A stretch of 64,000 nucleotides of DNA from a virus. Within the stretch, counting starts at the first letter, position 1, and each line of letters opens with the position of its first letter. The notes beneath the pieces were generated by a model, which saw only the letters and a program-made list of their open reading frames with translations, had not been told where the DNA came from and did not search any database. This document shows positions 10,880 through 24,825 of the stretch, in pieces. The stretch spans positions 118,860 to 182,859 of the IMG/VR virus record IMGVR_UViG_3300042013_000056. One strand, given 5' to 3'. The translations under genes were made by a program, and so were the position numbers.

Positions 10880-10881
10880 TT

Positions 10882-11030: not shown

Positions 11031-11043
11031 AGAATCAATTATT

Positions 11044-11118: not shown

Positions 11119-11128
11119 ATATTGTTAT

Positions 11129-11350: not shown

Positions 11351-11419
11351 ATCATTCTCACAATAGAAGGCTGCAACGTAACAAAGAACCAGTCTAAGCC
11401 AGTGGATGCAGCTCGTTTT

Positions 11420-11494
11420 TGGTAGTTCCGACCGGGAACGATCCGGTGATTTGTCCTTATGAGGGACTTGGTTTACCGATTAGCCTACGGAACT
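11420..11494 (-). tRNA. tRNA with CAT anticodon (elongator Met or Ile2)
   Basis: CT-CAT-AA loop, A1-U72 paired, CCA. Confidence 0.85.
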
Positions 11495-11578
11495 ATATTT
11501 TTGACCTCTTGAGTGGCTTCTCCCCGAAGGTTTCCGCTTATATTGCCACTGGGAGTCACCCCAACGCCCGAAGGTGAT

Positions 11579-11657
11579 TGGTTGCGGGTGCTGGATTCGA
11601 ACCAGCGAGCTTTGGCGTATGAAACCAATGAGATAGGCCAGACTTCTCTAACCCGCA
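11579..11657 (-). tRNA. tRNA-Met(CAT), initiator-like body
   Basis: TGCGGGT...ACCCGCA-ACCA resembles fMet, but it lacks the three G-C pairs in the anticodon stem. Confidence 0.82.
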
Positions 11658-11658
11658 A

Positions 11659-12009
11659 TTATTCTAATCTTAACCGCACATGTTCTTCACGATGGCAGTT
11701 GGCACATAGCATCAAACACTTATCTAACTCCGCCTGTATGACTACCCAAGCTTTGTTATGTGTGTTGGCACCTATGCCGAAGTCTTTCTGTGTTGGGTCT
11801 TTGTGATGGAACTCAAGGGCTTCTACACACTTGTTGTAGCCGCACGTTTCACATCTACCACCCTTGTATGCAATAGCCATCATTTTGACTTTAGCACGCC
11901 GACGTTTTACAGCGTCGTACATACACTTGCGACAGCGCTCATGGTATTTCTGCACCGAATGGACTGTTTCACCATGCTTGGCACAGACCTTGATTACTGT
12001 ATCTACCAC
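11659..12009 (-). mobile_element. HNH endonuclease
   Basis: CETCG...LEFHHKDP...KCLMLCANCHREEH; inserted between tRNA genes. Confidence 0.85.
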
Positions 12010-12024
12010 ATCAGACCTTATATT

Positions 12025-12099
12025 TGGTGCTACTAGCAGGACTCGAACCTACGCCGATCGATTATCGGTCGATTGCACTACCAACTGTGCTATAGTAGC
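12025..12099 (-). tRNA. tRNA-Ile(GAT)
   Basis: ATCGA-CC-GAT-AA-TCGAT (C33), CCA. Confidence 0.88.
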
Positions 12100-12115
12100 T
12101 TTGTATCATTGAATT

Positions 12116-12192
12116 TGGTCACCCTACACAGATTCGAACTGTGTCTTCATCGTCCCAAACGATGTGTGCTAGCCGTTGAACACTATAGGGAG
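12116..12192 (-). tRNA. tRNA-Pro(TGG), copy 1
   Basis: TT-TGG-GA loop, CCA. Confidence 0.9.
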
Positions 12193-12194
12193 AT

Positions 12195-12276
12195 TGGTGG
12201 GTTATTGGTGGAATCGAACCACCGACCGTATCATACGTCCTGTACAAGACAGAATGAACAGCCAAACATGTAACCC
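12195..12276 (-). tRNA. Aberrant tRNA-like gene (Tyr-like, irregular D and anticodon arms)
   Basis: Good T arm, acceptor and ACCA; long variable arm; anticodon register ambiguous (TTGTACA). Confidence 0.5.
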
Positions 12277-12290
12277 ATGAAACTTTAAAT

Positions 12291-12366
12291 TGGTCACCCC
12301 GAACAGATTTGAACTGTTTCTTCATCGTCCCAAACGACGTGTGCTACCGTTGAACACTACGGGGAG
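12291..12366 (-). tRNA. tRNA-Pro(TGG), copy 2
   Basis: Near-duplicate of 12116-12192. Confidence 0.9.
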
Positions 12367-12629
12367 TTAATAGCAGGTTGGCACCCTTTAACTATTGTGT
12401 CTGAGGATAATTTCCGACACGCACACAGTTATATCCCACTGTTCGGTTGCTACTTATTCTCTGTAGCCGATATCCAAGCGAACTTGGCGGTTTGATTGGT
12501 GTATTGTTGTTTGAACGAGTTCGGCAACAATAGTCCTATCTCTCTAGTATTTTTAGAGGTTTGCTGTATTCCAACCTAATTGTGTAGGGTTAGATAGCCC
12601 TACGACCGTGCGGGGAGCAACAGTGTTCT

Positions 12630-12911
12630 TTACTTGTGCATGACATCTAACAGATACTGGAAATCACTATCAGCGGCCTTGTAGGCAGCTTGGCGACGTT
12701 CTTCCAATAACTCTGGTGTCATCACTTTAAGGTCGGCCAATAAAATACTGACACGAACCTTGGAATTTTTGATTACTACGCCTGCTTCGGACATAATCCG
12801 TTTACATCTGGCATCGGATTTACCGGTATACTCAACGACCTTGAACCAGCCGCGTTTGTCTTGGTAAAAACCTTTGTTGGAAAATACCAACGAACCCACT
12901 TGGACTGTCAT
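12630..12911 (-). CDS. Hypothetical protein
   Basis: Start trimmed to ATG 12911 (MTVQVGS) to remove overlap with the upstream gene. Confidence 0.6.
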   Translation of the reverse strand: MTVQVGSLVFSNKGFYQDKRGWFKVVEYTGKSDARCKRIMSEAGVVIKNSKVRVSILLADLKVMTPELLEERRQAAYKAADSDFQYLLDVMHK

Positions 12912-12915
12912 GTAT

Positions 12916-13251
12916 TTAGCGACCCCGATTTGCGAGCAAATGGTTACGAACTGCCTCGGCATGTGCGATTGCATCTTCATACATTTTCTCGACTTGCTGA
13001 ACGCTGATTTTCGTTACCCAAGCAACTTCAATCGGTTTACCCGGCTTTGGGTTGCTGGTGATGTATTCATTGTTGTCAACCAGACGTTTTGCCTTTACAT
13101 GCAAAATACCTTGGATTTCCAATACTTCTGAAACAACACCAATACCATCACGACCTTTGTTGCCGACACGGATTTTGATCAAATCACCAAACTGAATGTC
13201 TTTCGCAAGATCGTCTTGCATTCGCTTTTGCAAATGTGTCATCTGGTTCAA
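12916..13251 (-). CDS. Hypothetical protein (possible SH3/KOW-like beta fold)
   Basis: 111 aa, GDLIKIRVGNKGRDGIGVV. Confidence 0.6.
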   Translation of the reverse strand: MNQMTHLQKRMQDDLAKDIQFGDLIKIRVGNKGRDGIGVVSEVLEIQGILHVKAKRLVDNNEYITSNPKPGKPIEVAWVTKISVQQVEKMYEDAIAHAEAVRNHLLANRGR

Positions 13252-13272
13252 TATATAATTCTCACAATGAAT

Positions 13273-13375
13273 TGTATCTGAATCACCGGGTCAGTTACGC
13301 AACACCCTTTCGGGCACCCAATCTTTCAGGGCTTTACCGGCTAGCTGATTTTAGGGCTTTCGCCTACGATTCAAA
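13273..13375 (-). ncRNA. Structured RNA with GNRA-capped hairpins
   Basis: TTTGAATC/GATTCAGA closing stem; TAGGC-GAAA-GCC and GCCC-GAAA-GGGT hairpins. Confidence 0.5.
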
Positions 13376-13377
13376 TT

Positions 13378-13481
13378 TGGTTTGAACAGTTGGGTACGCA
13401 ATGATTACGTCATTTCACCCTCTCCACTTCGAGGCGACTGACCTAAGCCAGTTGTAATCACCCACAGATGTGTTGTTCAAA
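13378..13481 (-). ncRNA. CCA-terminated structured RNA (TTTGA...TCAAA-CCA family)
   Basis: TTTGAACA/TGTTCAAA plus CCA; shares AGGTCAG and ATTGCGTA with 10774-10879. Confidence 0.55.
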
Positions 13482-13483
13482 TT

Positions 13484-13559
13484 TGGTGCCGCAGAAAGGA
13501 CTCGAACCCTCAACCTTCTCATTACAAGTGAGCTGCACTACCAGTTGTGCTACAGCGGC
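13484..13559 (-). tRNA. tRNA-Thr(TGT)
   Basis: CT-TGT-AA loop, CCA. Confidence 0.9.
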
Positions 13560-13732
13560 TTTTTGTATTCCTGTCTCATAACAAAACGATTCATCAAAGC
13601 ATTAGCCAATGGATCATTGAGTAAATTTTTAATCAAATCCGGGGCCATCGGTTGAACCGATAGAAGTTCTCTTGCGAGTTGTTCCGGGTCAAACTTTGTA
13701 GCCCATTCACTCAACTGTTCTTTGGTCAGCAT
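13550..13732 (-). CDS. Hypothetical protein
   Basis: 60 aa; ends in TAG inside the 5' end of tRNA-Thr. Confidence 0.4.
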   Translation of the reverse strand: MLTKEQLSEWATKFDPEQLARELLSVQPMAPDLIKNLLNDPLANALMNRFVMRQEYKKPL

Positions 13733-14019
13733 GGTTCAGTCCGAAGAAGTGGATACTTCTCTTTGAAGCTTTCATGTTGACCACACCCGGAACACACATG
13801 AATGTATTTCGGTGGGTAAGTCAGGTAAGCTTCACCGGTTGCTACGAACTGCCCAACACAATTATTATGATCGGCGTGTACCTGATACGTTCGAACTTCA
13901 ACCTTGCGTTCTGTTAACAGTGCAGCTCTATTACGCTGAAACCGTTCAATCGCTTCTTCTCGGTTCATCATTTCCCACGTTTCTCCACAAGAGACTTTGC
14001 AAAATTGCAAGGCGAACAC
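13726..14019 (-). CDS. Hypothetical CxxC protein (true start probably near 13971)
   Basis: HVCSGCG zinc-ribbon-like motif. Confidence 0.5.
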   Translation of the reverse strand: MFALQFCKVSCGETWEMMNREEAIERFQRNRAALLTERKVEVRTYQVHADHNNCVGQFVATGEAYLTYPPKYIHVCSGCGQHESFKEKYPLLRTEPC

Positions 14020-14384
14020 ATGGTGGTTGTATTGCTGACATTATCAGCACCACCCGCACTTCTCGCTAACGTATGATCATGAGTAAACAGAATCTCATTG
14101 CCCTTTTTATCTTTGCCCCAGAGGTTCAGATGATATGGAAAATCATCAGTCTCTCTGACAGGACGTTCCACCGCATAGTAAGACGCGTGCAGCCCACATG
14201 CAGAACATTTGGTGCTACGATAAAACGTTCTTAACCGGGTTCCGCGACTGAACAGCTTGACTTGTTTACCAAACAGTTCAGTTCTGGGTTGATCCTTTGG
14301 GGAAGCTCCGACGACAGTTTTCTGTCTAGCCCGAATTTCCTTGATGTCAACAACACCTATACGATGATAATCTTGCGGCTTCAT
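13968..14384 (-). CDS. HNH endonuclease-family protein
   Basis: CSACG...FTHDHTLARSAGGADNVSNTTTMCSPCN; has its own promoter. Confidence 0.8.
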   Translation of the reverse strand: MKPQDYHRIGVVDIKEIRARQKTVVGASPKDQPRTELFGKQVKLFSRGTRLRTFYRSTKCSACGLHASYYAVERPVRETDDFPYHLNLWGKDKKGNEILFTHDHTLARSAGGADNVSNTTTMCSPCNFAKSLVEKRGK

Positions 14385-14414
14385 TGTATCAATCTCTTGC
14401 TTGGTTATGAATCA

Positions 14415-14447
14415 AGCATACCAGCATTGGAACAGAATGTAAACATT
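14415..14447 (-). promoter_or_regulatory. Early/middle-type promoter
   Basis: AATGTTTAC-N18-TATGCT. Confidence 0.75.
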
Positions 14448-14458
14448 TGAATCGAATT

Positions 14459-14655
14459 TGGTCGTGGGGGCCGGACTCGAACCAACGACCTTCGGCTTAG
14501 TTGCCGATGCTCTTAAAAACCGATAACCGCCAATGTGTCATCCGGAAAGCAACGCCCATATCCACAAAACACTTCTACTGGCATCTAGCGTCTACTATAT
14601 CGGTCGCGCACCGATGTTCAACATTCGAAATTTAATCCAACTGAGCTACCCCACG
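14459..14655 (-). ncRNA. tRNA-like RNA with a 123-nt insertion in the D loop and a 6-nt anticodon loop
   Basis: CGTGGGG-TA-GCTC-AGTTGGA[insert 14513-14635]GAGC-A-TCGGC-AACTAA-GCCGA-AGGTC-T arm-CCCCACG-ACCA. Confidence 0.75.
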
Positions 14656-14764
14656 TTGCGCCATGGTTTTAGATTCAGACCCATGAACTGAATATTGCCT
14701 TGCGGCTACCTGATACTAAAGTCGGGGTTCCCATTAAAGGGGTATCCAACAATTGCATCAAATT

Positions 14765-14841
14765 TGGCTGGATATCTTGGAATCGAACCAAGCTCAAGTG
14801 ATTAACAGTCACCCCGCAGCCGCCATGGCGCGTCATATCCA
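14765..14841 (-). tRNA. tRNA-Asn(GTT), copy 1
   Basis: CT-GTT-AA, G73, CCA. Confidence 0.88.
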
Positions 14842-14849
14842 ATTTAATT

Positions 14850-14925
14850 TGGTGGGGTTCTTTGGATTCGCACCAACAACTGCGAAGTCGATGCCACGCC
14901 GCTTTCCTAATTAAGCTACAACCCC
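14850..14925 (-). ncRNA. Aberrant tRNA-like RNA (irregular anticodon arm, TGCGAAT T loop)
   Basis: GGGGTTG acceptor, D stem GCTT/AAGC, ACCA. Confidence 0.6.
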
Positions 14926-14994
14926 TTCGTCACCCGATTCTTTCACTTCGGGTCTAGCGAGTGTTCGTTACCTTAGACATCGGGGTATCGAATT

Positions 14995-15071
14995 TGGCTC
15001 CGGTAGTAGGACTCGAACCTACGACCTGACGGTTAACAGCCGCCTGCTCTACCAACTGAGCTATACACGGA
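14995..15071 (-). tRNA. tRNA-Asn(GTT), copy 2
   Basis: CT-GTT-AA; bulged nucleotide in the acceptor stem; CCA. Confidence 0.87.
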
Positions 15072-15081
15072 ATTGAAATTT

Positions 15082-15172
15082 TGGTGGGGAACAGAAGACT
15101 TGCACTTCCAACCTTGGCTACTGGCCGACTATACCGGCGCTCGCCATGCTCTGCTAATTGAGCTAATTCCCC
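15082..15172 (-). ncRNA. tRNA-like RNA with the anticodon loop replaced by an extended hairpin
   Basis: GGGGAAT/GTTCCCC, GCTC/GAGC, TGGC-GAGC-GCCGG-TATAG-TCGGC-CAGTA-GCCA, T loop TGCAAGT, ACCA. Confidence 0.7.
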
Positions 15173-15228
15173 AGTACCGAATGCAATGATTGGAGTGGCG
15201 TGTACTTAGCCAGCCTCACATTGCATTC

Positions 15229-15308
15229 TGCTCTGTTGTGGATATCCCATTCCCATTGCACGTTCATAACGTCGGTGGAGGCATCGAACCCCGGATAAGA
15301 CAACAGCA
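15229..15308 (-). ncRNA. Circularly permuted tRNA-mimic (YrlA-like topology) candidate
   Basis: Closing stem TGCTGTTGT/ACAAC-AG-AGCA, then T arm GGGG-TTCGATG-CCTC, hairpin ACGT/ACGT, and a D-loop-like AATGGGAAT. Confidence 0.45.
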
Positions 15309-15333
15309 TTCTTTTTGATCGTTAGATCGAATT

Positions 15334-15412
15334 TGGTGGGAAAGGATGGAATTCAACCATCGTATTGCAGTGTCCAATGTTAACTGCTGCTCTTACATTC
15401 AGCCACTTTCCC
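15334..15412 (-). ncRNA. tRNA-like RNA with an 11-nt anticodon loop
   Basis: GGGAAAG/CTTTCCC, GCAGT-TAACATTGGAC-ACTGC, ACCA. Confidence 0.7.
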
Positions 15413-15568
15413 TTTGGTCACCATCTTATAAACCGCTGATGAACGCGGTACAAGCTGCCACCGGTTGTTGCTACACCGATTAGACCTGTTGTCCCGAGAA
15501 GCCGCTAAGCTTCAATTGGAACCATCATACGTGGCCTTACTACGTCTAGTTAGCACTACAGCATTGTT

Positions 15569-15652
15569 TGGTGGATCAGGTAGGGATCGAACCTACTTCG
15601 CCAGCGGCATGGGGTTACAGCCCACTAGGACTACCTGTGTCCCGTCTGATCC
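15569..15652 (-). tRNA. tRNA-Tyr(GTA), copy 1
   Basis: CT-GTA-AC, long variable arm, CCA; CTAAATA late promoter at 15659-15665. Confidence 0.9.
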
Positions 15653-15975
15653 ATGTTCTATTTAGATCGGAGCAAATGGCTCAACAATCTGGAATTAGTA
15701 GCACCCGGTAAAAGGTCACATCATTGATCAATGATGCTAACGTGCAATAGTTAGACACTTTGTCAGTCAAACAGGATTCTTTAACGAATTCCCCCATTAT
15801 ATCTCGGCTGATTGTTTCAAGAACATCCAGCAAATCTTCTACCGATTAACGTCCGGTTGTATCCCGACATGGTTATGTTGTGAACCAGTACACACCAACC
15901 TGTTAACGAACAGCAGGGACAACCGCATGCATTTTACCCAGTGCATGATGGGATGTGCCGTTTACCCGGCAAATT

Positions 15976-16051
15976 TGGTGGGAAAGGATGGACTTGCACC
16001 ACCCCACACCCGCTGTTAGCAGGCAGCTCTAGCTATCTGAGCTACTTTCCC
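15976..16051 (-). ncRNA. Aberrant tRNA-like RNA (loop CTAACAG, nominal anticodon AAC; T loop TGCAAGT)
   Basis: Same GGGAAAG/CTTTCCC acceptor as 15334-15412; the anticodon stem can extend to leave a 3-nt loop. Confidence 0.65.
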
Positions 16052-16052
16052 A

Positions 16053-16185
16053 TGGTGACGATTGAGTTCTATTGGTGATCGTCAAACCGCAAAACCCCTG
16101 AACTTTTGGGGATCAACGCTTATCCCCTTGGGCGTTGACAGAAACCAGTCGATACCCGAAGGCGTTAGAACTGAGGGAGTTTCCA
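16053..16185 (-). ncRNA. CCA-terminated multi-hairpin RNA with a possible pseudoknot
   Basis: 3' hairpin TGACGAT/ATCGTCA-CCA; its loop TAGAACT is complementary to the 5' AGTTCTA. Confidence 0.5.
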
Positions 16186-16187
16186 TT

Positions 16188-16264
16188 TGGTGGGTCGTCT
16201 GGGATTCGAACCCAGAACCTTCCGGTTAAAAGCCGGATATTCTAAACCGTTGAATTAACGACCC
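16188..16264 (-). tRNA. tRNA-Lys(TTT)
   Basis: TCCGG-CT-TTT-AA-CCGGA, CCA. Confidence 0.93.
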
Positions 16265-16279
16265 GGTGAAACTTGAATT

Positions 16280-16355
16280 TGGCGCCCATGAACGGACTCG
16301 AACCGTCAACTTACCGCTAGACAGGCGGTTACTCTACCAATTGAGTTACATGAGC
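16280..16355 (-). tRNA. tRNA-Asp(GTC)
   Basis: ACCGC-CT-GTC-TA-GCGGT, G73, CCA. Confidence 0.92.
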
Positions 16356-16361
16356 TTTTAA

Positions 16362-16426
16362 CTGGATACCATTGGTCTTTTCAAAGATTAAAGGTTTGAA
16401 TGATTTATGGTTTGCTGTTGGTATCC
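16362..16426 (-). ncRNA. AACAGCA-motif stem RNA, copy 3
   Basis: GGATAC-C-AACAGCAAA...AATG-GTATCC-AG. Confidence 0.65.
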
Positions 16427-16432
16427 AAAACT

Positions 16433-16502
16433 TGGTGCAGTAGCTGGATTTGACACCGGCATCAGTCGCTTTAGAGGCGTTGACTTCTTTAGTCGATACT
16501 GC
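16433..16502 (-). tRNA. Degenerate second CUA (amber) tRNA-like gene
   Basis: GCAGTA/TACTGC-ACCA, loop CT-CTA-AA on a 3-bp CGC/GCG stem, 8-nt T loop. Confidence 0.55.
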
Positions 16503-16558
16503 AAATGGGGCCGATCATTCGGTTAAATTCCCCGGTAATTCTGTTTGCTTATACGGTA

Positions 16559-16591
16559 ATTGTATCACAACACAACCACCAAATAAACATT
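16559..16591 (-). promoter_or_regulatory. Early/middle-type promoter
   Basis: AATGTTTAT-N18-TACAAT. Confidence 0.75.
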
Positions 16592-16600
16592 GAAACTTAA

Positions 16601-16658
16601 CTAGTTGCACTTTTGCTTTCAAGCCAATATGAAATTTAAGTGTTTGCTGTTGGCAACT
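16601..16658 (-). ncRNA. AACAGCA-motif stem RNA, copy 4
   Basis: AGTTGC-C-AACAGCAAA...AAAAGT-GCAACT-AG. Confidence 0.65.
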
Positions 16659-16663
16659 AAAAC

Positions 16664-16738
16664 TGGTACATCCGGTTGGACTCGAACCAACATAAGTCGG
16701 CTTAGAAGGCCGATGCACTTCCGTTATACCACGGATGT
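16664..16738 (-). tRNA. tRNA-Arg(TCT)
   Basis: TCGGC-CT-TCT-AA-GCCGA, CCA. Confidence 0.92.
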
Positions 16739-16746
16739 ATTGAAAC

Positions 16747-16825
16747 TGGTGGGCCAAAGCGGGATTCGAACCCTACCCTCATCCACTCTCTGGGATGCGC
16801 TCTATCCGCTAAGCTACTCGGACCC
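16747..16825 (-). ncRNA. Aberrant tRNA-like RNA (8-nt anticodon loop, extended acceptor stem)
   Basis: CATCC-CAGAGAGT-GGATG; canonical T loop; ACCA. Confidence 0.65.
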
Positions 16826-16838
16826 ATTTGATGTAATC

Positions 16839-16871
16839 AATATATCATATCAATCACACAAATTAAACATT
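16839..16871 (-). promoter_or_regulatory. Early/middle-type promoter
   Basis: AATGTTTAA-N18-TATATT. Confidence 0.7.
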
Positions 16872-16885
16872 GAAACTAAATTATT

Positions 16886-16973
16886 TGGCGGGCCACTGAG
16901 GTATCGATCCCCAATCGCGAAACGATCCACTAGTTTTCAAGACTAGGCTACCAGCCATGGCAGTTAATGACCC
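16886..16973 (-). tRNA. tRNA-Ser(TGA)
   Basis: CTAGT-CT-TGA-AA-ACTAG, long variable arm, G73, CCA. Confidence 0.9.
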
Positions 16974-16974
16974 A

Positions 16975-17166
16975 TTAAATCTGTTTGAACACTGGCAGGT
17001 TGTAGGTATGCATTCTTACGAATTCACGACAATCCAATTTAATTGGATTGCCTACAGTGTGTGGTGTACGTTCAGTGAACAATCCACCGTCGTCTTGCTC
17101 TACAAGGTACAACAACATGCAATTGCCGGTTGTGCCTTCCAGTTGTCCTTTAAAATACCGATCCAT
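16975..17166 (-). CDS. Hypothetical protein
   Basis: 63 aa, coupled to neighbours. Confidence 0.5.
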   Translation of the reverse strand: MDRYFKGQLEGTTGNCMLLYLVEQDDGGLFTERTPHTVGNPIKLDCREFVRMHTYNLPVFKQI

Positions 17167-17379
17167 TCAAAGCCCCATTACACTGACCAGAAGGCCATAT
17201 TCTTGGATCATCTGATAGTTACGACCAGCATAGAAGAATTTGATGATACTAGACCCTTCAAACTCGATGCTTGGTTGAAACGAAACCAAATCCATGTGTT
17301 CATCTAATACGCCAATCACTTCATGGAAGTCGCTTGGGTTCAGATTTGTCTGAATGCTTTTCAAGTCTTTTGGAAACAT
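17167..17379 (-). CDS. Hypothetical protein
   Basis: 70 aa. Confidence 0.5.
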   Translation of the reverse strand: MFPKDLKSIQTNLNPSDFHEVIGVLDEHMDLVSFQPSIEFEGSSIIKFFYAGRNYQMIQEYGLLVSVMGL

Positions 17380-17540
17380 TAAGCTGGTTCCTTTGGTATC
17401 ATAAACGCGGGAGTCGGAGTGAATCGTTTCGGATTCCGTCCAGACCCTACGATGGTTAGCACCGGCTTTTGACGCTTAACCGGCTGTGAACCAAGTGTCC
17501 AGAAGCTGTTCAAGCCCCAGAAATTACCACGTTGTTTCAT
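17379..17540 (-). CDS. Hypothetical 53-aa basic protein
   Basis: Start trimmed to ATG 17540 after a TGAGA leader; the longer ORF crosses tRNA-Gly. Confidence 0.45.
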   Translation of the reverse strand: MKQRGNFWGLNSFWTLGSQPVKRQKPVLTIVGSGRNPKRFTPTPAFMIPKEPA

Positions 17541-17562
17541 AATATAAGTCTCACAATGAAAT

Positions 17563-17638
17563 TGGAGCGGACGACGAGACTTGAACTCGCAACAGCCTGC
17601 TTGGAAGGCAGGAACTCTACCAATTGAGTTACGTCCGC
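17563..17638 (-). tRNA. tRNA-Gly(TCC)
   Basis: CCTGC-CT-TCC-AA-GCAGG, U73, CCA. Confidence 0.93.
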
Positions 17639-17758
17639 AAATGGAAAGCACTGTCTCACGACGTTCTCGCCACCGAATACCCAAGGCGCGGGTAATTCGT
17701 TTGTCAAGCACCGGTTAACTTGAAGCTTTTGTTCCGGCTGTGCCTGACTTGTGAATCT

Positions 17759-17791
17759 ACTATAACAGGGTTCTGTTCAATTCTAAACATT
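17759..17791 (-). promoter_or_regulatory. Early/middle-type promoter
   Basis: AATGTTTAG-N18-TATAGT. Confidence 0.75.
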
Positions 17792-17806
17792 GAAACAGAA
17801 ATAATT

Positions 17807-17884
17807 TGGTGTGGATGATCGGACTCGAACCGACTCCTACCGGGTTTCAGGCCCGGTCGCTTCGTCCCTGTTAGCTTCATCTAC
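17807..17884 (-). tRNA. Atypical tRNA, loop CCTGAAA (TGA by register with C33; GAA if shifted)
   Basis: 6-bp ACCGGG/CCCGGT anticodon stem, short variable loop, ACCA. Confidence 0.6.
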
Positions 17885-17889
17885 AGATT

Positions 17890-17965
17890 TGGTGGGTTCA
17901 AACGGTAACGATCCGTTATCTATGGCTTTTCAGACCATCGCTTGTACCATATAAGCTATGAACCC
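17890..17965 (-). tRNA. tRNA-Phe(GAA)
   Basis: CT-GAA-AA, CCA. Confidence 0.92.
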
Positions 17966-17968
17966 ATA

Positions 17969-18089
17969 ACAGAATGCATTTATCTATCGGCACGATTCGA
18001 ACGTGCTTCTCCCTATGCCAAGGGTGGTTTACCTACATAACCTACGCTGCAAAGATTGGTTGCATGAGATTGGTTGCTGTTAGCATTCT
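17969..18089 (-). ncRNA. AACAGCA-motif stem RNA, copy 5, enclosing a tRNA-like core
   Basis: GAATGC-T-AACAGCAA...GGTT/AACC, CCCT/AGGG, GCACG-TTCGAAT-CGTGC...AAAT-GCATTC-TG. Confidence 0.65.
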
Positions 18090-18097
18090 AAGGCATT

Positions 18098-18181
18098 TGG
18101 TGCGTTAGGTAGGGATCGAACCCACTGTGCCATCGGCGCCGCTTTACAGGCGGTTGGGACTACCCTTGTCCCGTCTAACGC
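18098..18181 (-). tRNA. tRNA-Tyr(GTA), copy 2
   Basis: CT-GTA-AA, long variable arm, CCA. Confidence 0.9.
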
Positions 18182-18196
18182 ATTGAAACTAAAATT

Positions 18197-18272
18197 TGGT
18201 GCCCGTAGAGGGATTCGAACCCCCAACCCCTCGGTTCGTAGCCGAGGATTCATCCAGTTGAACTTTACGGGC
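18197..18272 (-). tRNA. tRNA-Arg(ACG)
   Basis: CTCGG-CT-ACG-AA-CCGAG, CCA. Confidence 0.93.
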
Positions 18273-18275
18273 AAT

Positions 18276-18300
18276 AAAAAGGGAGCCAATGGCTCCCTTT
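18276..18300. terminator. Intrinsic terminator
   Basis: AAAAAGGGAGCC-A-TGGCTCCCTTT-type perfect hairpin with A/T tails. Confidence 0.75.
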
Positions 18301-18324
18301 AAGAAAATCGATGCAACAACCGAA

Positions 18325-18453
18325 TCAAATATCCGGGCGTTCGTCTTCTTGGGAACCAATTGTAACGGTTTTGCCGAAATTAAAGGCAAAGCGATCCTGT
18401 ACCGGATATCCAGCATTTTTCAGAGAGCGATTTGTGATAGTCATTGACGACAT
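18325..18453 (-). CDS. Small (42 aa) probable late protein
   Basis: MSSMTITNRSLKNAGYPVQDRF..., between a CTAAATA promoter (18492-18498) and a terminator. Confidence 0.45.
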   Translation of the reverse strand: MSSMTITNRSLKNAGYPVQDRFAFNFGKTVTIGSQEDERPDI

Positions 18454-18537
18454 GGCTTTAATTCCAATTTGTAAAACAGTTGATGTACTTGTATTTAGCG
18501 TTGTGTTTTTGAAAAATCATCGGTTTTCGAAAATAAT

Positions 18538-18810
18538 TCAAAAATAATTTTCACCGGTTGTTTGATACCGTGTCCAATCCATGATCATGTATTCCAGCCT
18601 AGACCGGAACGACCACAGGAAACCATACTCTGCAAAGTCCTCAGACTTCGCTACAGCCATTTGTTGAGTCAGTGTGCGGATTTCCCCGAACACTGACATC
18701 ACAGTCGTCATACCGGCTTGTAGACGGTCTACGATCATTTGTTGCAACCATGCTTCACCCTTGGAACCGTAGTGGTTCGCATAGGCCAGCACAAACTCAT
18801 CAAATGTCAT
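18538..18810 (-). CDS. Hypothetical protein
   Basis: 90 aa with AAGG RBS. Confidence 0.6.
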   Translation of the reverse strand: MTFDEFVLAYANHYGSKGEAWLQQMIVDRLQAGMTTVMSVFGEIRTLTQQMAVAKSEDFAEYGFLWSFRSRLEYMIMDWTRYQTTGENYF

Positions 18811-18823
18811 AGACCACCTTTCC

Positions 18824-20221
18824 TTACCAGTCGTAACGCGGAACGTTCAGAGTGTCCAACATCATAGACAGTGGGGTCACTTCTGGAACATCAGTTGCCG
18901 CCAGAATCGATTTCATGATTGCTGGACTGAATCCAGTAACCATCGCAGTACCACCAACACCGAAGCTAACTGGCACGTTACCGAAACTGGAGTTCATGTT
19001 CCAGAAAATGATGTCCGGGCGTTTGTAGCCAGCGGCTGCATACATACGGTCAATCATTTCGAACGCTGAATCATTTTGGAAACCACGGTCCACGCTATTG
19101 AACTGCATGTCAGACCACAACAGAATCTTGGTCGGCATGTCTTCAACCGGAACTTTGTGTTTCACCGCCGATTTCAGAATCAGTTCGAACGACTTTTGCA
19201 GGTTGGTAGAACCACCCCACGGTGCAGATTTTGTCTTGCGAACACGTTCGGTCAGTGTCTTGCAGTCCGACAGGTCCACCCATGTAGGGTTACTATCAAA
19301 CGTGATGAACTGATCCTTGAAGATGCCCTTGGAACGCTCTGCAACGTAGATACCCAGAGATACCGCCACATCCATACAGGTCAGGCCCGGAGACGCGTTG
19401 TAGTTGCTCATAGAGCCCGACACATCGACGATACCAATCAGGTTCTCTTTCGAGTCTGCAAGGTAATCTGGCAATGCTTTCCACTGCGCATCAGCAACAC
19501 CCTGAACACCATTCAAACCGCGAATGACATCGTAAGGGAAGATCGCACCGGCATTGATGGTGGTTTTGCCTGTAGCAAGACCGTCAACCCATTCTTGGTA
19601 CGCTTCTGGTGCATTACGCTTGAATGCCTTCTGGTAGTTCTTCGACGCAACCGATGGAAGCTTGCTGAAATCGATTTCGTTCCACTGCTGGGCACACATC
19701 TTCTGTTCAACAGTGTTGGACAGCTTGACGATCATTTTGCGGTAGTTGCGTTCGGTCAATTCGAACTGATTCATGAAGAACCGAGAATACTTCTTGCCTT
19801 CACGCGGCATCCACTTCGCACACAGACCGTTATTGTCAAGCAGAGCCTGAGCAACGATTTCAGTGATAACGAAGTCCAGTTGCTCACTGATACCGATCAG
19901 TTGCCACAGGTCATCCCAACGACCAACTTCCGGGATTTTTGCGATGATACGCGCTGTGGTGTGAATGTGTTGTTCACGGGCGATTTGCCCCATCAACGAA
20001 CGGAAAGTCTGACGTTCACCAGCACCACCGCGAATATCACGAACCCACAACAGTTGACGAACTGCCAAATCGGCATCTTCGTTGTACGCAGCACGGAACT
20101 GGCTCGACAGGTCAAGACCACGGGCCGAACCGATCTTGGCGAACAGATCGACGTTTGCATTGAAGCTGGTTTTCTGTGCAGCCATACCGTTGGTGGTACG
20201 AGTCATGTTAGTTTGATTCAT
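18824..20221 (-). CDS. TROVE/Ro60-like RNA-binding protein with C-terminal vWA domain (DUF2828-type)
   Basis: Start trimmed to ATG 20221 (promoter lies at 20260-20292). N-terminus TTNGM...VDLF, RDIRGGAGER, GRWDDL, AKWMPRE; vWA MIDAS DVSGSM. Confidence 0.8.
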   Translation of the reverse strand: MNQTNMTRTTNGMAAQKTSFNANVDLFAKIGSARGLDLSSQFRAAYNEDADLAVRQLLWVRDIRGGAGERQTFRSLMGQIAREQHIHTTARIIAKIPEVGRWDDLWQLIGISEQLDFVITEIVAQALLDNNGLCAKWMPREGKKYSRFFMNQFELTERNYRKMIVKLSNTVEQKMCAQQWNEIDFSKLPSVASKNYQKAFKRNAPEAYQEWVDGLATGKTTINAGAIFPYDVIRGLNGVQGVADAQWKALPDYLADSKENLIGIVDVSGSMSNYNASPGLTCMDVAVSLGIYVAERSKGIFKDQFITFDSNPTWVDLSDCKTLTERVRKTKSAPWGGSTNLQKSFELILKSAVKHKVPVEDMPTKILLWSDMQFNSVDRGFQNDSAFEMIDRMYAAAGYKRPDIIFWNMNSSFGNVPVSFGVGGTAMVTGFSPAIMKSILAATDVPEVTPLSMMLDTLNVPRYDW

Positions 20222-20259
20222 TATGTATTCTCTCACAAGTTGTTCTGATTTATGTGCCC

Positions 20260-20292
20260 ATCGTAGCATGGTTTGATTCTGTTTTAAACATT
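20260..20292 (-). promoter_or_regulatory. Early/middle-type promoter
   Basis: AATGTTTAA-N18-TACGAT upstream of the TROVE-like gene. Confidence 0.7.
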
Positions 20293-20325
20293 GGAACAGA
20301 ATTATTTTCACAAATGTTTAGGCGT

Positions 20326-20352
20326 AAAAAAGCCCCGGCGAACCGAGGCTTT
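20326..20352 (-). terminator. Intrinsic terminator
   Basis: AAAGCCTCGG-TTCG-CCGGGGCTTTTTT on the minus strand. Confidence 0.75.
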
Positions 20353-20358
20353 AGAATG

Positions 20359-20433
20359 TGGCAGGCTACTACGGACTCGAACCGCAAATGAGGGATTTGG
20401 AATCCCTAGTGTTGCCAATTACACCAGTAACCC
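20359..20433 (-). tRNA. tRNA-Trp(CCA)
   Basis: AGGGA-TT-CCA-AA-TCCCT, G73, CCA. Confidence 0.92.
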
Positions 20434-20665
20434 ATAAACCGGCCCTCACACACAAGAGAATGTCTTTACAGACTAGGCCGGGGTCGAAGCGTGGATTAAA
20501 TCCTGCTTCTGTACTTCTATTTAGTGCTTTGATTTTCAAAAATGGTCGTATTTGCAAAAATAATTCACAAACACCCACTTCGGCAGTCATCCTGTTGCCT
20601 TCGTAGAGCTTCCCGCCCAATGAGTATTCATTAAAACACACAATTGGGCGGAAATAAACATTGAA

Positions 20666-21046
20666 TCAGTACCAATCCCACATGCGTTCAGCTTCGTTCA
20701 CACGGGGTGACAGGATTACATCATAATCCTCGGTACGGCTGGCACGGTACATTTCGATCTTGTGCTTACGCTTCTGTCTCATGGTGTCTTCACGGTGGTA
20801 CATGCCGGGGCACTTATTCCATCGTCTGTAGTCCATGTGATATTCACGGATGTTGAATTCTGCGTATGCATCATATTCTTTGAAATCGTCATCCATCCAA
20901 TATGGTTGGTCGAGGATTTCGTTATGCCATCCACCCGGATACGAAATGCACAGATGCGTGCGTTCATTTTCACAGCGCAGAAGACCAAGACCGATGTACT
21001 TGTGGAAGTTCCGGTTAGGGTTACCGCGACGAATTGTTCTTGACAT
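20666..21046 (-). CDS. Hypothetical protein
   Basis: 126 aa, GAGG RBS. Confidence 0.65.
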   Translation of the reverse strand: MSRTIRRGNPNRNFHKYIGLGLLRCENERTHLCISYPGGWHNEILDQPYWMDDDFKEYDAYAEFNIREYHMDYRRWNKCPGMYHREDTMRQKRKHKIEMYRASRTEDYDVILSPRVNEAERMWDWY

Positions 21047-21115
21047 TTTCTTCCCTCATTGAGAAGCCCGGTATTGAGCTTCAATGACGCGAAGATTTGT
21101 CCCAGATGTATTTGA

Positions 21116-21244
21116 TCATTCGTGTGATTTCCCACAACGTAGACATTTGGTGAAATAGAGATAACGAACCGATGGATTGTACCCAAACGGGTATCGTTCT
21201 TTGTAAACCAGTTTGCACCCGAAGATTTTACATATCAGGCTCAT
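21116..21244 (-). CDS. Small Cys-rich protein
   Basis: MSLICKIFGCK...KCLRCG, 42 aa, ATGA-coupled. Confidence 0.45.
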   Translation of the reverse strand: MSLICKIFGCKLVYKERYPFGYNPSVRYLYFTKCLRCGKSHE

Positions 21245-21516
21245 TGAGGCATCCAGTATGGTGCATCAGCCAACCCATATCGAACCATAGCCAGTTTGAA
21301 TGCATCAATCCGGCGTTCCTTGTAGAAGCCATTTGGATCAAATGGTCGAACCACTACATCATTCACATCAGCGAATGTGGTTGCATCAACTACAACATGA
21401 CCAGCCTTGCTACCATCGGCAGCAAGATAAATCTGTCCGTTGGTAATACCGTAGCTTGGTTCAACAACTGGTTTTGGTTGGCGTTTCTGTACAACGATTG
21501 TTGGTTTCGGTTTCAT
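21241..21516 (-). CDS. Hypothetical protein
   Basis: Start trimmed to ATG 21516 (the upstream part of the tracked ORF is tRNA-Leu). Confidence 0.55.
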   Translation of the reverse strand: MKPKPTIVVQKRQPKPVVEPSYGITNGQIYLAADGSKAGHVVVDATTFADVNDVVVRPFDPNGFYKERRIDAFKLAMVRYGLADAPYWMPQ

Positions 21517-21530
21517 GTCATTCTCACATT

Positions 21531-21616
21531 TGGTGCCCGTGGTGGGATTCGAACCCACATGATCTTTCGACCGTCGCATTTTAAGTGCGGTGTGTATACC
21601 GTTCCACCACACGGGC
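21531..21616 (-). tRNA. tRNA-Leu(TAA)
   Basis: CT-TAA-AA, long variable arm, CCA. Confidence 0.93.
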
Positions 21617-21623
21617 GTTTGTA

Positions 21624-21839
21624 TCAAATAAGCAGCGTAAGTTCGCTGTAGCCTTGTTCCTGAACTTCGTTGTAGGTCAACGGGTTCGCTTCAATCAGGT
21701 TTGGTGGCGAATAAATCACTTGAAGCGATTTGTTGTAGTTCGCATATTCAGCCAGTGACTTGAAATGAATATTGCCGATGTAGTTACCGGCGCGTGTGTG
21801 CATCAGCACTTCATAGACTAGATTCATCGACACTCTCAA
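21624..21839 (-). CDS. Hypothetical protein
   Basis: 71 aa. Confidence 0.45.
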   Translation of the reverse strand: MRVSMNLVYEVLMHTRAGNYIGNIHFKSLAEYANYNKSLQVIYSPPNLIEANPLTYNEVQEQGYSELTLLI

Positions 21840-22044
21840 AAAGGACGGTGTTAAAAGACTTGGTTGGGAATTCTTGCAGGGTTACATAAGACATCCAGCC
21901 ACCAACTTCGGTGTGGGATACTGTGTAGATAGCGTTCAGTTCCAGAACTTCGCGAGCGGCTTTGTTTTGTGTTTCATAGCCGCTTCCACCCGGTGTAAAG
22001 CGTACTTTCGTACCTGCACGGGCGTAGATATCCATACTACTCAT
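21811..22044 (-). CDS. Hypothetical protein
   Basis: Start trimmed to ATG 22044 (MSSMDIY). Confidence 0.55.
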   Translation of the reverse strand: MSSMDIYARAGTKVRFTPGGSGYETQNKAAREVLELNAIYTVSHTEVGGWMSYVTLQEFPTKSFNTVLFESVDESSL

Positions 22045-22075
22045 TACGAATTTTTCATTTCTCTTGTTTATAATT

Positions 22076-22153
22076 TGGTGGGCCTTGTCGGACTCGAACC
22101 GATCTATCCTTCGCTTATGAGGCGAACGCATTTACCAATTATGCTAAAGGCCC
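22076..22153 (-). tRNA. tRNA-Ile2 (CAT, probably lysidine-modified)
   Basis: GGGCCTT acceptor and CT-CAT-AA loop; body resembles bacterial Ile2. Confidence 0.8.
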
Positions 22154-22159
22154 GAATGT

Positions 22160-22355
22160 GGTTTGATGGTGTGCTATTACGCCAAAAGAGAGTTATGCCT
22201 TACCGTTTCCGGGGTGCCATCCTACTGCCAGTATTGGGTTCGTCTAACCTGCTTCTGATTGCCGTGACCGGTCAACCCGACATAGTACGAATGATCCAAT
22301 ACCTTGCTCTACTCATTATAAGGTGGCTGCTTCTAAGCCAACTTCCCATCAAACC
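22160..22355 (-). ncRNA. 23S rRNA GTPase-centre (L11-binding, H42-H44) mimic, copy A, with an inserted domain
   Basis: 10-bp closing stem GGTTTGATGG/CCATCAAACC enclosing GTTGGCTTAGAAGCAGCCA (19 nt identical to 23S H43) and GCGTAATAGC (H44 loop). Confidence 0.85.
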
Positions 22356-22375
22356 TACGGGTGTTGCGGGTTAAT

Positions 22376-22685
22376 CGCTGGTGTGTTATGACACCAAATG
22401 CTCTACGGGTCTTGCATGGCGTTAATGGAACGGTATCTGTACTTGCCAGCCTTTTCAGCCCTTATCCGTTTCGGACTGCCATTTTAAGTCGAGGCTTCGC
22501 CCTCTAACATAAGACCCAGATCATCTGCATGCACGGATGTCTATTAGTCTATTACCATACAAATTGCACTTGTTCTTCCCCGGTGGATATACGGATTCAG
22601 CTAGGATCGCCTACACACGTTTAAACTTCTGACGGTTCCACTCGCAACTCATTAAAGATGGCTACCTTTAAGCCAACTTCCAGCG
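22376..22685 (-). ncRNA. 23S rRNA GTPase-centre mimic, copy B, with a larger inserted domain
   Basis: CGCTGG/CCAGCG stem enclosing AAGTTGGCTTAAAGGTAGCCATCTTTAATGAGT and GTGTCATAAC (compensatory change versus copy A). Confidence 0.8.
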
Positions 22686-22689
22686 TTTG

Positions 22690-22842
22690 TTACTCTGCCA
22701 AATCTGACAGTTTAATAGTCGAAGCGTACTTTATAACGATTTCAATTTCGTTAAGTTCCAATTCTTCTTCGAGCATTTCCATTGACACAAAACCCGTAGC
22801 GTAACCACGGGCAAGTGATTTCAATTCTTCGTTGCTGATCAA
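22690..22842 (-). CDS. Hypothetical 50-aa acidic protein
   Basis: TTG start overlapping the upstream stop; MISNEELKSLARG... Confidence 0.45.
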   Translation of the reverse strand: MISNEELKSLARGYATGFVSMEMLEEELELNEIEIVIKYASTIKLSDLAE

Positions 22843-23294
22843 CTCTCAACCTCTTGACTTCCCCACACCAATGCGTGGTTATCCCAAAAATGTTTCGCCT
22901 GCATGTATTCATCTGGTGTACGAATCGATTTATCAAACAGTTCTTTTTCGGCAACTTTGCCAATGAAACTAGTCAACAGTTTGAACCGACGACCAACACG
23001 CTTCATGATCACTGTTACATGACTTGAAGGTTGTTGTGTTCGGTTCAGAACAAATCGAGTCTTACCCGGACGACCCGGACGCTTGGCATACACAATGTCG
23101 TCGTAGGCTGTAGTTTCCACGCAATCAGTTACTCCAATGATCCGGCCCATGTCAATTGCCGTTTTAACAAAAACCTGATCTTCAAGGACCATAGTTGGAA
23201 TAATCTGTTTCAGGAAAGGCATGACCGATTCATGCATTTTCATGTGTTCACGGTCAATGTCTACTACGATGCCATCGGCGGTCTTGATATGCAT
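22839..23294 (-). CDS. Hypothetical protein
   Basis: 151 aa, typical phage composition. Confidence 0.65.
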   Translation of the reverse strand: MHIKTADGIVVDIDREHMKMHESVMPFLKQIIPTMVLEDQVFVKTAIDMGRIIGVTDCVETTAYDDIVYAKRPGRPGKTRFVLNRTQQPSSHVTVIMKRVGRRFKLLTSFIGKVAEKELFDKSIRTPDEYMQAKHFWDNHALVWGSQEVES

Positions 23295-23337: not shown

Positions 23338-23835
23338 TTAGGCGTTTGCTGCAAGACGTTTGTGAACACCCTTACGGGCTTTCAATGTGTCCCGGTCTGC
23401 AACCGTTGAACCACACCACGCATCTGGTTTCAGCTTCGGTTTGAAACCGAATGTACCCAGAACATAACCAACCGCTTCCTTGACGGCGACGTTTGATTTG
23501 TGCTGTGGGTCTGGGTTCAAATCCAAATGAATTTCGAATGGTCTGCCTTCAAGGTGTTCAACGATTTTGTACGCAACATCAATTGCTTTGTACACTTCGT
23601 TCATCAGACGACCTTTGATATTTCCATACCAAGGTTCGATACTGATTTCCTTGTAGATTTTCCCACCCTTATTTCCATCATAGTGCAAGACAATAACAGT
23701 AACATAAACCACTTTGCCTTTGACTCGTTTGGAATCTGCACCGACATAAACCTTGGTGGTCATAGACGATTCTTGAATCGCCTTGATCACATCAGGGATG
23801 TCCATTGCCTGTACGACTGTGCTTACGTTACTCAT
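23338..23835 (-). CDS. YkuK/DUF458-family RNase H-like protein
   Basis: VYVGADS...YVTVIVLH...RLMNEV...EIHLDLN motifs. Confidence 0.8.
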   Translation of the reverse strand: MSNVSTVVQAMDIPDVIKAIQESSMTTKVYVGADSKRVKGKVVYVTVIVLHYDGNKGGKIYKEISIEPWYGNIKGRLMNEVYKAIDVAYKIVEHLEGRPFEIHLDLNPDPQHKSNVAVKEAVGYVLGTFGFKPKLKPDAWCGSTVADRDTLKARKGVHKRLAANA

Positions 23836-24004: not shown

Positions 24005-24175
24005 TTAAACCCCTAAAGAAATCCACCCGAGTTGAGCTGCTGCATAGATCGCAACAAAACAACCAGAGAAGAAAGGGAATGCTTTCAGCATCAATTTGTC
24101 GATTAAACCATTTGTATCAACGGTGAATGCCACAATAACCCACAAAACGCCAACAATAAACATTGCCATCAACAT
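24005..24175 (-). CDS. Small two-TM membrane protein
   Basis: 56 aa, two hydrophobic segments, TAATG overlap with the dNMP kinase stop. Confidence 0.55.
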   Translation of the reverse strand: MLMAMFIVGVLWVIVAFTVDTNGLIDKLMLKAFPFFSGCFVAIYAAAQLGWISLGV

Positions 24176-24825
24176 TAGATATCAACCTGTTCCAGAACAG
24201 AATCGAGCTTATGGAAGAATTCCAGCAGCGTTCCGTTGTTTTCAACGACGAAATCCCCGTTTTCAACGGGTAAACCTTGTTCTGTTATATGGTCGTCAGT
24301 CAAGCCGGTTTCCCGAAGAATATGGATGACGGAACCACCACGTTCACGAACAAATTCGATTTCATGTGTTTGTCTGCAATCGACCATGACAACGGTATCA
24401 TAGACTTCTTCGAGACTAAACATTGCTTTCTCAAATTCTTTGAGCCAGATATTTGTATCAATCTGATTGACGCCTACGTCAGTGCCTACAACCTGCATGA
24501 TTCTGCGAATGGTCCAACCGTTATTGTCGTCTACAACCGACCAATCGATATCCAATTCATCCATACGGTAACCGAAGTCTTCGTAGATGCTTTCAACCCG
24601 TTCAATGAAGTCTGAACGTTCGATATAAATCATGAAACTGTTGCGATCAACACCATAGCCGAACACATCGTCTCTGGTCAGGAAATCGGAAAAATGTGTT
24701 GCGATTGATTCTTTGAAGCATGCAGCCAGTGCATACGAGGTTGAACCGGATAGTTTATCCAAGATATATTGTGCGGCTGTATCTTTGCCACATCTGGCTT
24801 TAGCTGATAATGTAATAATATTCAT
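24175..24825 (-). CDS. gp1: Deoxynucleoside monophosphate kinase
   Basis: P-loop-like SAKARCGKDT; RRIMQVVGTD; VDCRQTHEIEF. Confidence 0.88.
   Translation of the reverse strand: MNIITLSAKARCGKDTAAQYILDKLSGSTSYALAACFKESIATHFSDFLTRDDVFGYGVDRNSFMIYIERSDFIERVESIYEDFGYRMDELDIDWSVVDDNNGWTIRRIMQVVGTDVGVNQIDTNIWLKEFEKAMFSLEEVYDTVVMVDCRQTHEIEFVRERGGSVIHILRETGLTDDHITEQGLPVENGDFVVENNGTLLEFFHKLDSVLEQVDI

Follow-up and report, generated by a model that had tools for sequence, protein, structure and literature searches.

The 64,000-nt stretch of viral DNA analysed here (the window; positions 118,860 to 182,859 of IMG/VR record IMGVR_UViG_3300042013_000056) contains, on its minus strand, two tandem RNA modules that each resemble the GTPase-associated centre of 23S ribosomal RNA (rRNA). 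The phage record is complete at 182,859 bp, and these two modules, A and B, are the sole copies in it. They lie between the stop codon (22692–22690) of a 50-codon open reading frame (ORF) and a tRNA gene (22153–22076). Each module consists of a closing helix, hairpins resembling H43 and H44 of the rRNA, and a domain inserted at the point that corresponds to rRNA nucleotides 1089/1090 (Escherichia coli numbering). The best explanation of the two-module region is that it encodes one non-coding transcript, or two after processing, in which two members from a large family of phage RNAs are joined. The features, in the direction of transcription, are as follows.

22685–22160, minus strand: two-module non-coding RNA, B then A in tandem, around 530 nt
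22685–22376, minus strand: module B
22680–22685, minus strand: module B closing helix, 5′ strand CGCUGG (equivalent of the top of H42), pairing with 22381–22376
22657–22679, minus strand: module B H43-like hairpin, loop UUAAAGGUA, A1067 equivalent kept, U at 1072
22649–22656, minus strand: module B junction UUUAAUGA (1082–1088 equivalents, including G1087 and A1088)
22396–22648, minus strand: module B insert, class beta, 253 nt, starting GU-UGC and ending GCA-UUU
22383–22395, minus strand: module B H44-like hairpin GGU-GUCAUA-ACAC, with a U-A closing pair
22376–22381, minus strand: module B closing helix, 3′ strand CCAGCG
22356–22375, minus strand: 20-nt linker between B and A, not conserved in relatives
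22355–22160, minus strand: module A
22346–22355, minus strand: module A closing helix, 5′ strand GGUUUGAUGG (DNA GGTTTGATGG), pairing with 22169–22160
22320–22344, minus strand: module A H43-like hairpin, A1067 equivalent at 22334 and C1072 equivalent at 22329
22313–22319, minus strand: module A junction AUAAUGA (1082–1088 equivalents), its A1082-U1086 being one covarying form
22184–22312, minus strand: module A insert, class alpha, 129 nt, starting GU-AGAG and ending CUCU-UUU
22171–22183, minus strand: module A H44-like hairpin GGC-GUAAUA-GCAC, A1095 equivalent at 22178
22160–22169, minus strand: module A closing helix, 3′ strand CCAUCAAACC (DNA CCATCAAACC)
22076–22153, minus strand: tRNA with anticodon CAT, 6 nt downstream of module A, first of a 32-tRNA array

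Read on the minus strand, both modules and their closing helices lie where an earlier model-made reading of the sequence (the original prediction) had placed them; its insert sizes of about 128 and 250 nt were close to the measured 129 nt (22312–22184, module A) and 253 nt (22648–22396, module B). The E. coli 23S segment 1051–1108, which it had quoted, agrees with the fetched rrlH gene (L181), as do the two identities it had reported for module A: 22342–22324 equals 1059–1077 at 19 of 19 positions, and 22182–22173 equals 1091–1100 at 10 of 10. The H43-like hairpin of module A presents the 9-nt loop UUAGAAGCA on a GGC/GCC stem with outer pairs at 1057:1081 and 1058:1080, and its H44-like hairpin presents a GUAAUA hexaloop closed by 1092-1099 and 1091-1100, with G1093·A1098. 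Within the window the H43 motif occurs twice, against no occurrence in 100 shuffles. Module B belongs to a core subtype with an H43 stem one pair shorter than that of module A and a different base triple (U/U-A), and the predicted replacement of the C-G pair closing the H44 loop in module A by U-A in module B is present. The A1067 equivalent is kept in both modules; the A1095 equivalent is kept in module A only, module B having C (22390).

Covariation in a family of phage RNAs

Scanning viral contigs with three patterns retrieved around 190 related modules, from a family that is larger still. An 18-mer from the 3′ half gave 102 contigs, a variant for the U-A form gave 72 contigs, around one-third of them with true modules, and the 5′ half alone gave at least 119 contigs. 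A covariance model, R1, was built from 29 aligned short members, all of them phage RNAs, together with the rRNA-derived structure, and almost all retrieved contigs give it a full-length module hit. Module A scores 138.7 bits (span 22155–22357) and module B 65.4 bits (E 3e-18, span 22367–22691); the genuine 23S centre of Paenibacillus is also recognised, at 57.7 bits. Both modules of the window have the features that define the family: a full-length R1 match, the junction A1088-GU-insert-UUU-G/A1090, and A at 1101.

The helices of the rRNA fold are maintained by compensatory change. Paired cells make up 89.9% in the hand-aligned set, versus 68.6% in shuffles and 34–50% in slid controls, and 93.7% in the set retrieved by the 5′ half, versus 72.7% and 30–53%, respectively; none of 500 shuffles reaches the observed pairing in either set. 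Pair 1057:1081 is A-U or C-G, and pair 1058:1080 occurs in four Watson–Crick types across the family. The closing helix of module A covaries across the family, and that of module B shows a compensatory change to AACAGG/CCUGUU in the Pseudomonas phages Milchi and Astolliot.

Covariation extends to tertiary contacts. Pair 1082:1086 is U:A in 41, C:G in 29 and A:U in 10. In the ribosome, contacts C1072/C1092 and C1072-G1099 have been listed (PMC2952862). In the first set of phage modules, for which retrieval constrained only 1092 and 1099 and left 1072 free, the 1072/(1092-1099) triple is C/C-G in 74 distinct cores, U/U-A in 16 and mixed in none. The second set adds 76 C/C-G cores with 1 exception, giving 150 C/C-G, 16 U/U-A and 1 mixed overall (around 167 distinct cores). 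Module A has the C/C-G triple and module B the U/U-A triple, with 1072 changing from C to U together with the closing pair, so that a single locus displays the covariation. The U1060-A1088 pair, to which uL11 Gly130-Thr131 hydrogen-bonds (PMC2175356), is invariant in both core sets apart from the drifted module B of Milchi and Astolliot. G1087, A1088 and G1093·A1098 are likewise invariant in the family.

In the set whose 3′ half was unconstrained by retrieval, G1093, U1094 and A1098 are conserved at around 100% and 1097 is free, and the A1067 and A1095 equivalents are A in 84% and 88% of cores, respectively. The fold is thus constrained more tightly than the loops that contact factors and thiostrepton. 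This pattern fits mutagenesis from the Draper laboratory, which reportedly indicates that uL11 recognises the fold rather than the loops.

Helix and tertiary-contact covariation, together with the recognition of a genuine 23S centre by a model made from phage RNAs alone, support the mimicry of the fold well, and each module very probably folds like the GTPase-associated centre. The structural part of the original prediction, tandem mimics of this centre that carry their inserts at the H44 base, is therefore strongly supported.

The inserts fall into discrete classes, of which alpha is the commonest (42 of 185 distinct inserts), followed by beta (around 21 of 185) and several smaller ones. Every insert in the family starts with GU and ends with UUU. 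Lengths run from 28 to 370 nt, and those of 28–40 nt are simple hairpins. Module A carries an alpha insert with the conserved 3′ motif CACCCC-GGAAAC-GGUAAGG, and in this class the motif covaries as two pairs, a CA bulge, CC, a 3-bp tetraloop hairpin, a UAA bulge and GG. The beta insert of module B is strongly conserved in Milchi, Astolliot and L110, and the same class occurs in the phages XbC2 and Kaldavass and in further contigs. At the base of the beta insert (22641–22646 with 22399–22410 in the window; also in L003, L004, L058, L133 and L140) we observe a covarying 3-bp helix followed by a conserved internal loop, 5′-GAGU / 5′-(G/U)UAGA, with a loose likeness to a bulged-G module of the loop E or sarcin–ricin type. 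No insert has significant similarity to E. coli 16S or 23S rRNA, and the idea that inserts mimic other parts of the rRNA, including the sarcin–ricin loop, was rejected on that ground.

In one lineage the core has drifted. Module B of Milchi and Astolliot (L001 1484–1816 and L002 1484–1816) has C at 1060, U-A at 1059:1079 and no A1088 equivalent. These copies score only 17–18 bits with R1, yet their beta insert is nearly identical to that of the window.

Carriers, coding potential and the tRNA array

The family has many cultured carriers. In Milchi and Astolliot (genus Otagovirus) both modules are syntenic with those of the window, and the unrelated jumbo phages XbC2 and Kaldavass carry a single module each. 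Other carriers are Pseudomonas phage pf16, Aeromonas phage 4_4572, Rak2-like jumbo phages, Cronobacter phage GAP32, CBB, Serratia phage BF, XacN1 and several Erwinia and Yersinia jumbo phages. The family RNA is annotated in none of these other carriers. Modules also occur in assemblies of Clostridia isolates, including Flintibacter muris, presumably on prophages, and in metagenome-assembled genomes of Bacteroidales, Bdellovibrio, Thioploca and Patescibacteria.

Most genomes carry a single copy, tandem pairs being rare. Two or three modules, dispersed or a few hundred nucleotides apart, occur in G012 (L030, L067), L016 (3761–4089 and 4719–4945) and L189 (3992–4351 and 5200–5393). In some members a second insertion immediately follows the H43 3′ strand (GCAGCCA followed by GG..., GA... 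or UUCG...), which leaves the core in three pieces: L026 4104–4400, L038 483–778, L070 13282–13581, L046 11536–11941, L089 514–1215 and L101 10309–10647.

The stretch was predicted to be free of ORFs, and no conserved ORF lies over the RNA on either strand: the longest stop-free run across 22685–22160 is 70 codons, and tblastn against relatives returns only fragments in mixed frames. A protein-coding reading was rejected on this basis and because the small coding sequences (CDSs) of Milchi are missing from the Astolliot annotation. These are three hypothetical CDSs of 36–43 codons annotated antisense to the RNA in Milchi (L001 1519–1989), with none at that place in Astolliot; they are probably spurious gene calls over non-coding RNA.

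The modules sit at the upstream end of an array of 32 tRNA genes on the minus strand (window 3588–22153, around 18.6 kb). Three of these have anticodon CAT; the original prediction had named the one next to module A tRNA-Ile2, whereas ARAGORN labels it Met, and Rfam confirms it as a tRNA only. The order of module then tRNA is shared with Milchi, Astolliot, L027 and L110. Across the family, 43 of 102 modules lie at most 200 nt from a tRNA, many with a gap of 0–9 nt to a tRNA on one side or on both, and all 64 loci that hold a tRNA have the nearest one on the strand of the module. Within the few kilobases fetched around each module, 38 of the 102 have no tRNA. No preferred tRNA identity was found beside the modules, and no sigma-70-type promoter just upstream of the RNA in the window. 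Since modules abut tRNAs on the same strand, the simplest reading of their biogenesis is co-transcription followed by release by nucleases.

All-versus-all clustering of 1,808 neighbouring ORFs gave no constant protein neighbour; the top cluster, found at 13 of 100 loci, comprises HNH endonucleases. A gene for uL11 or for RelA/SpoT is absent from the 183-kb phage genome. Given the lack of both a conserved neighbour and such genes, the partner of the RNA would be a host molecule. With hosts among Proteobacteria, Clostridia, Bacteroidales and Patescibacteria, a universal target such as uL11 is to be expected.

Other genes of the region were noted. An RNase H-like protein (Pfam PF04308, E 1.6e-24) is encoded around 650 nt upstream of the RNA (window 23338–23835, minus strand), and a 216-codon ORF lies further upstream (24175–24825, minus strand), where Astolliot annotates a dNMP kinase at the corresponding position. 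The array includes an amber-suppressor tRNA with anticodon CUA (window 5903–5978, minus strand; ARAGORN label Pyl). The window uses the standard code with normal ORFs, TAG ending 6 of its 62 long ORFs, and suppressor tRNAs occur in 6 of 62 tRNA-bearing loci. Five other module-bearing loci also have a CUA tRNA. A link between the modules and stop-codon recoding was rejected in view of the standard code and the small number of loci with a suppressor tRNA.

Possible functions and comparison with known systems

Each module is best explained as a replica of the uL11-binding domain (the top of H42, H43 and H44) that closes on itself and folds autonomously, with an accessory domain in place of nucleotides 1089/1090. 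Because the preserved features define the fold that uL11 recognises, binding of host uL11 by the modules is plausible and on balance probable. The original prediction had suggested several partners. Judged from sequence conservation, uL11 appears to be the best supported of them, since the U1060-A1088 pair that it contacts is invariant. The uL10–bL12 complex is unlikely, as the RNA lacks the lower H42 site and is closed by a helix of free sequence. Docking of translation factors or RelA is weakened by conservation of only around 84–88% at the A1067 and A1095 equivalents and by C at 1095 in module B.

In the mechanism that we propose, the RNA would be co-transcribed with the tRNA array and released by tRNA-processing nucleases, with RNase P setting its 3′ end by cleaving at the 5′ end of the tRNA, and it would accumulate as a stable RNA. 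The core would then bind the C-terminal domain of host uL11 off the ribosome, either drawing the protein from the exchangeable ribosomal pool or forming a free stalk-base ribonucleoprotein. Processes that depend on uL11, such as RelA activation and RF1 or EF-G function, would be lowered to the benefit of the phage, and the variable inserts would add stability or a second specificity. This whole chain, from transcription with the array to a uL11 decoy or sponge with effects on RelA activation and factors, is a tentative proposal, for which we put the chances at slightly less than even. A wider picture, in which phages of many bacterial phyla deploy free replicas of the uL11-binding domain at tRNA-like abundance, capture uL11 or factors that read the site, and so rewire translation and the stringent response, is somewhat unlikely in full; in it, the accessory domains would make each RNA an adaptor with a second target and the tandem pair would be a two-headed version.

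Several points weigh against a uL11 decoy. Binding of uL11 is predicted from preservation of the fold, and a benefit from uL11 depletion is conjecture. All members carry the 1089/1090 insert, A1101 and G·A or A·A at 1090-1101, and, as noted above, the RNA has no sigma-70-type promoter just upstream. Further, the drift of the module B core in Milchi and Astolliot suggests that in some lineages the insert, and not the uL11 site, is the selected part. This lineage provides the chief evidence that selection can act on inserts independently, and its insert may have outlived the mimic of the uL11 site.

The same observations bear on an alternative in which the rRNA-like core is a stable, nuclease-resistant scaffold, perhaps stabilised by abundant uL11, and the inserts are the functional parts, each class with its own target and the tandem pair with two activities. 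The discrete and individually conserved insert classes (alpha 42 of 185, beta around 21) with covarying internal motifs would be explained, as would the different classes in modules A and B and the nearly invariant beta insert beside a decayed core in Milchi and Astolliot. Yet the sole feature common to all members is the core and no insert is shared by all; inserts can be simple hairpins as short as 28–40 nt; and a scaffold has no need of the A1067 and A1095 loop residues, which have little role in folding and are nevertheless kept in 84–88%. We regard this alternative as unlikely. The retention of these two residues in most members could instead reflect docking, in which the free domain, alone or with uL11, binds EF-G, the EF-Tu ternary complex, IF2, RF3, RelA or the tRNA elbow and titrates or chaperones them, its place in the array pointing to a tRNA-related role. 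H43 and uL11 bind the tRNA elbow in the A/T state, and the strong association with tRNA genes on the same strand is in keeping with such a role. However, the modules have no sarcin–ricin loop partner and their inserts no rRNA similarity, the loops that contact factors are the least conserved part of the core (1097 is free, and 1095 is C in module B), the modules favour no tRNA identity, and for 38 of the 102 the few kilobases fetched hold no tRNA. Carriers also include contigs from assemblies of Patescibacteria, which often lack RelA. Docking of this kind is quite unlikely.

The nucleotides of the thiostrepton site, which are mostly kept, would also suit a decoy for an attacker of the GTPase-associated centre, soaking up a defence effector, a competitor's toxin or a thiopeptide-type antibiotic that reads H43/H44. 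A counter-defence RNA would fit the theme of the array, as phage tRNA arrays reportedly counter tRNA-targeting defences (PMC10264068). Our literature search found no defence system or toxin aimed at H43/H44, and a niche antibiotic fits poorly with so broad a range of hosts; the proposal, purely inferential, is very unlikely. Finally, the modules could be inert relics, either a chance-captured fragment of host 23S rDNA, possibly with an intron, or a mis-assembly. The 19-nt identity to enterobacterial 23S might suggest as much, and some phage records do hold true rRNA contamination. Both halves, however, are closed by their own covarying helix with abundant compensatory changes, and the fixed insertion point with its GU...UUU junction recurs across unrelated phages, in around 190 modules. 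The modules differ from rRNA consistently, for example in having A1101, no intron or LSU model matches at the Rfam gathering level, and synteny is conserved in cultured phages. Family-wide covariation, the fixed insertion point and inserts down to 28 nt effectively exclude a relic. True rRNA contamination in phage records looks different from the modules. One such record, L303 (Paenibacillus phage Pd_22F, record 83577–84412), has genuine uninterrupted 23S rRNA near one end, which is either an assembly chimera or packaged host DNA, and lies outside the family; a number of short 'phage' records in that collection are simply rRNA contamination.

The original prediction had allowed for a full-length match to a known Rfam family, with LSU rRNA, GOLLD and ROOL in mind, and the search gave none. 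At the gathering level, Rfam 15 finds only tRNAs in the whole window. At E up to 10, it finds only tRNA over 22000–22900, and in the modules of 12 relatives only a sub-threshold touch of LSU; the LSU model scores 21.8 bits on Milchi module A, below threshold. A full-text literature search found no phage mimic of the uL11-binding rRNA domain and no ribosomal-domain decoy. New in this locus are the rare tandem architecture and the combination, within one transcript, of both triple types with two insert classes; also new are the list of cultured carriers and the decay of the module B core with a persisting insert in Otagovirus isolates. The family would be among the largest structured-RNA families missing from Rfam, as two of the patterns alone each find more than 100 viral contigs. 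Cultured carriers in laboratory hosts make the question of function directly testable, and the natural C/C-G and U/U-A variants of the triple are ready compensatory controls for binding studies. Dozens of natural grafts on a well-studied RNA tertiary fold should also be useful for RNA structural biology and design.

The closest known structure is the 23S GTPase-associated centre itself (E. coli 1051–1108, the minimal fragment that binds uL11 and thiostrepton). The secondary structure is the same and the H43/H44 sequence nearly the same, and the likeness includes U1060-A1088, 1082:1086, G1093·A1098 and the 1072/(1092-1099) triple, in both isosteric forms. At 1087–1090 the phage RNA has GAGU, as in Firmicute rRNA and not as in E. 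coli. Unlike the 23S centre, the phage RNA stands alone, with a short helix of free sequence to close it; it is encoded by a phage among tRNA genes and interrupted at 1089/1090 by a domain of 28–370 nt flanked by GU and UUU. Its 1101 is always A, where rRNA has U, and its 1090 is G or A, so that G·A or A·A replaces the 1090-1101 pair; the lower part of H42, which carries the uL10 site, is missing. A 23S gene or fragment was rejected given self-closed modules, inserts of 129 and 253 nt and no LSU match at the Rfam gathering score, as was a group I or group II intron within an rRNA fragment, for which no intron model matches and which the family inserts of down to 28 nt do not suit.

Leaders of ribosomal-protein operons (L10_leader, RF00557, and the L1-binding leader of the L11 operon) likewise hold an extra-ribosomal copy of an rRNA site recognised by a protein. 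By contrast, they are cis-regulatory 5′ untranslated regions that copy a local motif only, whereas the phage RNA copies a whole tertiary domain. An autoregulatory leader was rejected here, with a tRNA downstream, neighbouring ORFs that are not ribosomal proteins and no match to an Rfam leader model. GOLLD and ROOL, too, are large, structured non-coding RNAs without a known function, common in phages and situated beside tRNA genes; their architecture differs from that of the modules, neither has an Rfam model match here at E up to 10, and to our knowledge neither resembles rRNA. The T4 RNAs rnaC and rnaD (species 1 and 2) are similarly stable RNAs of unknown function from a phage tRNA cluster, processed with the tRNAs. 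Kinship with them was rejected: the best unfiltered R1 score in the T4 tRNA region is 8.4 bits and falls elsewhere, and the H43 and H44 motifs are lacking. In its proposed logic, an RNA that mimics a site to capture a protein, the phage RNA is akin to 6S RNA, phage pseudo-ToxI and viral tRNA-like structures, from which it differs in the molecule imitated. If it works as we propose, it would be the first known viral copy of a whole functional rRNA domain as a separate molecule, and a new phage route to manipulating translation or the stringent response.

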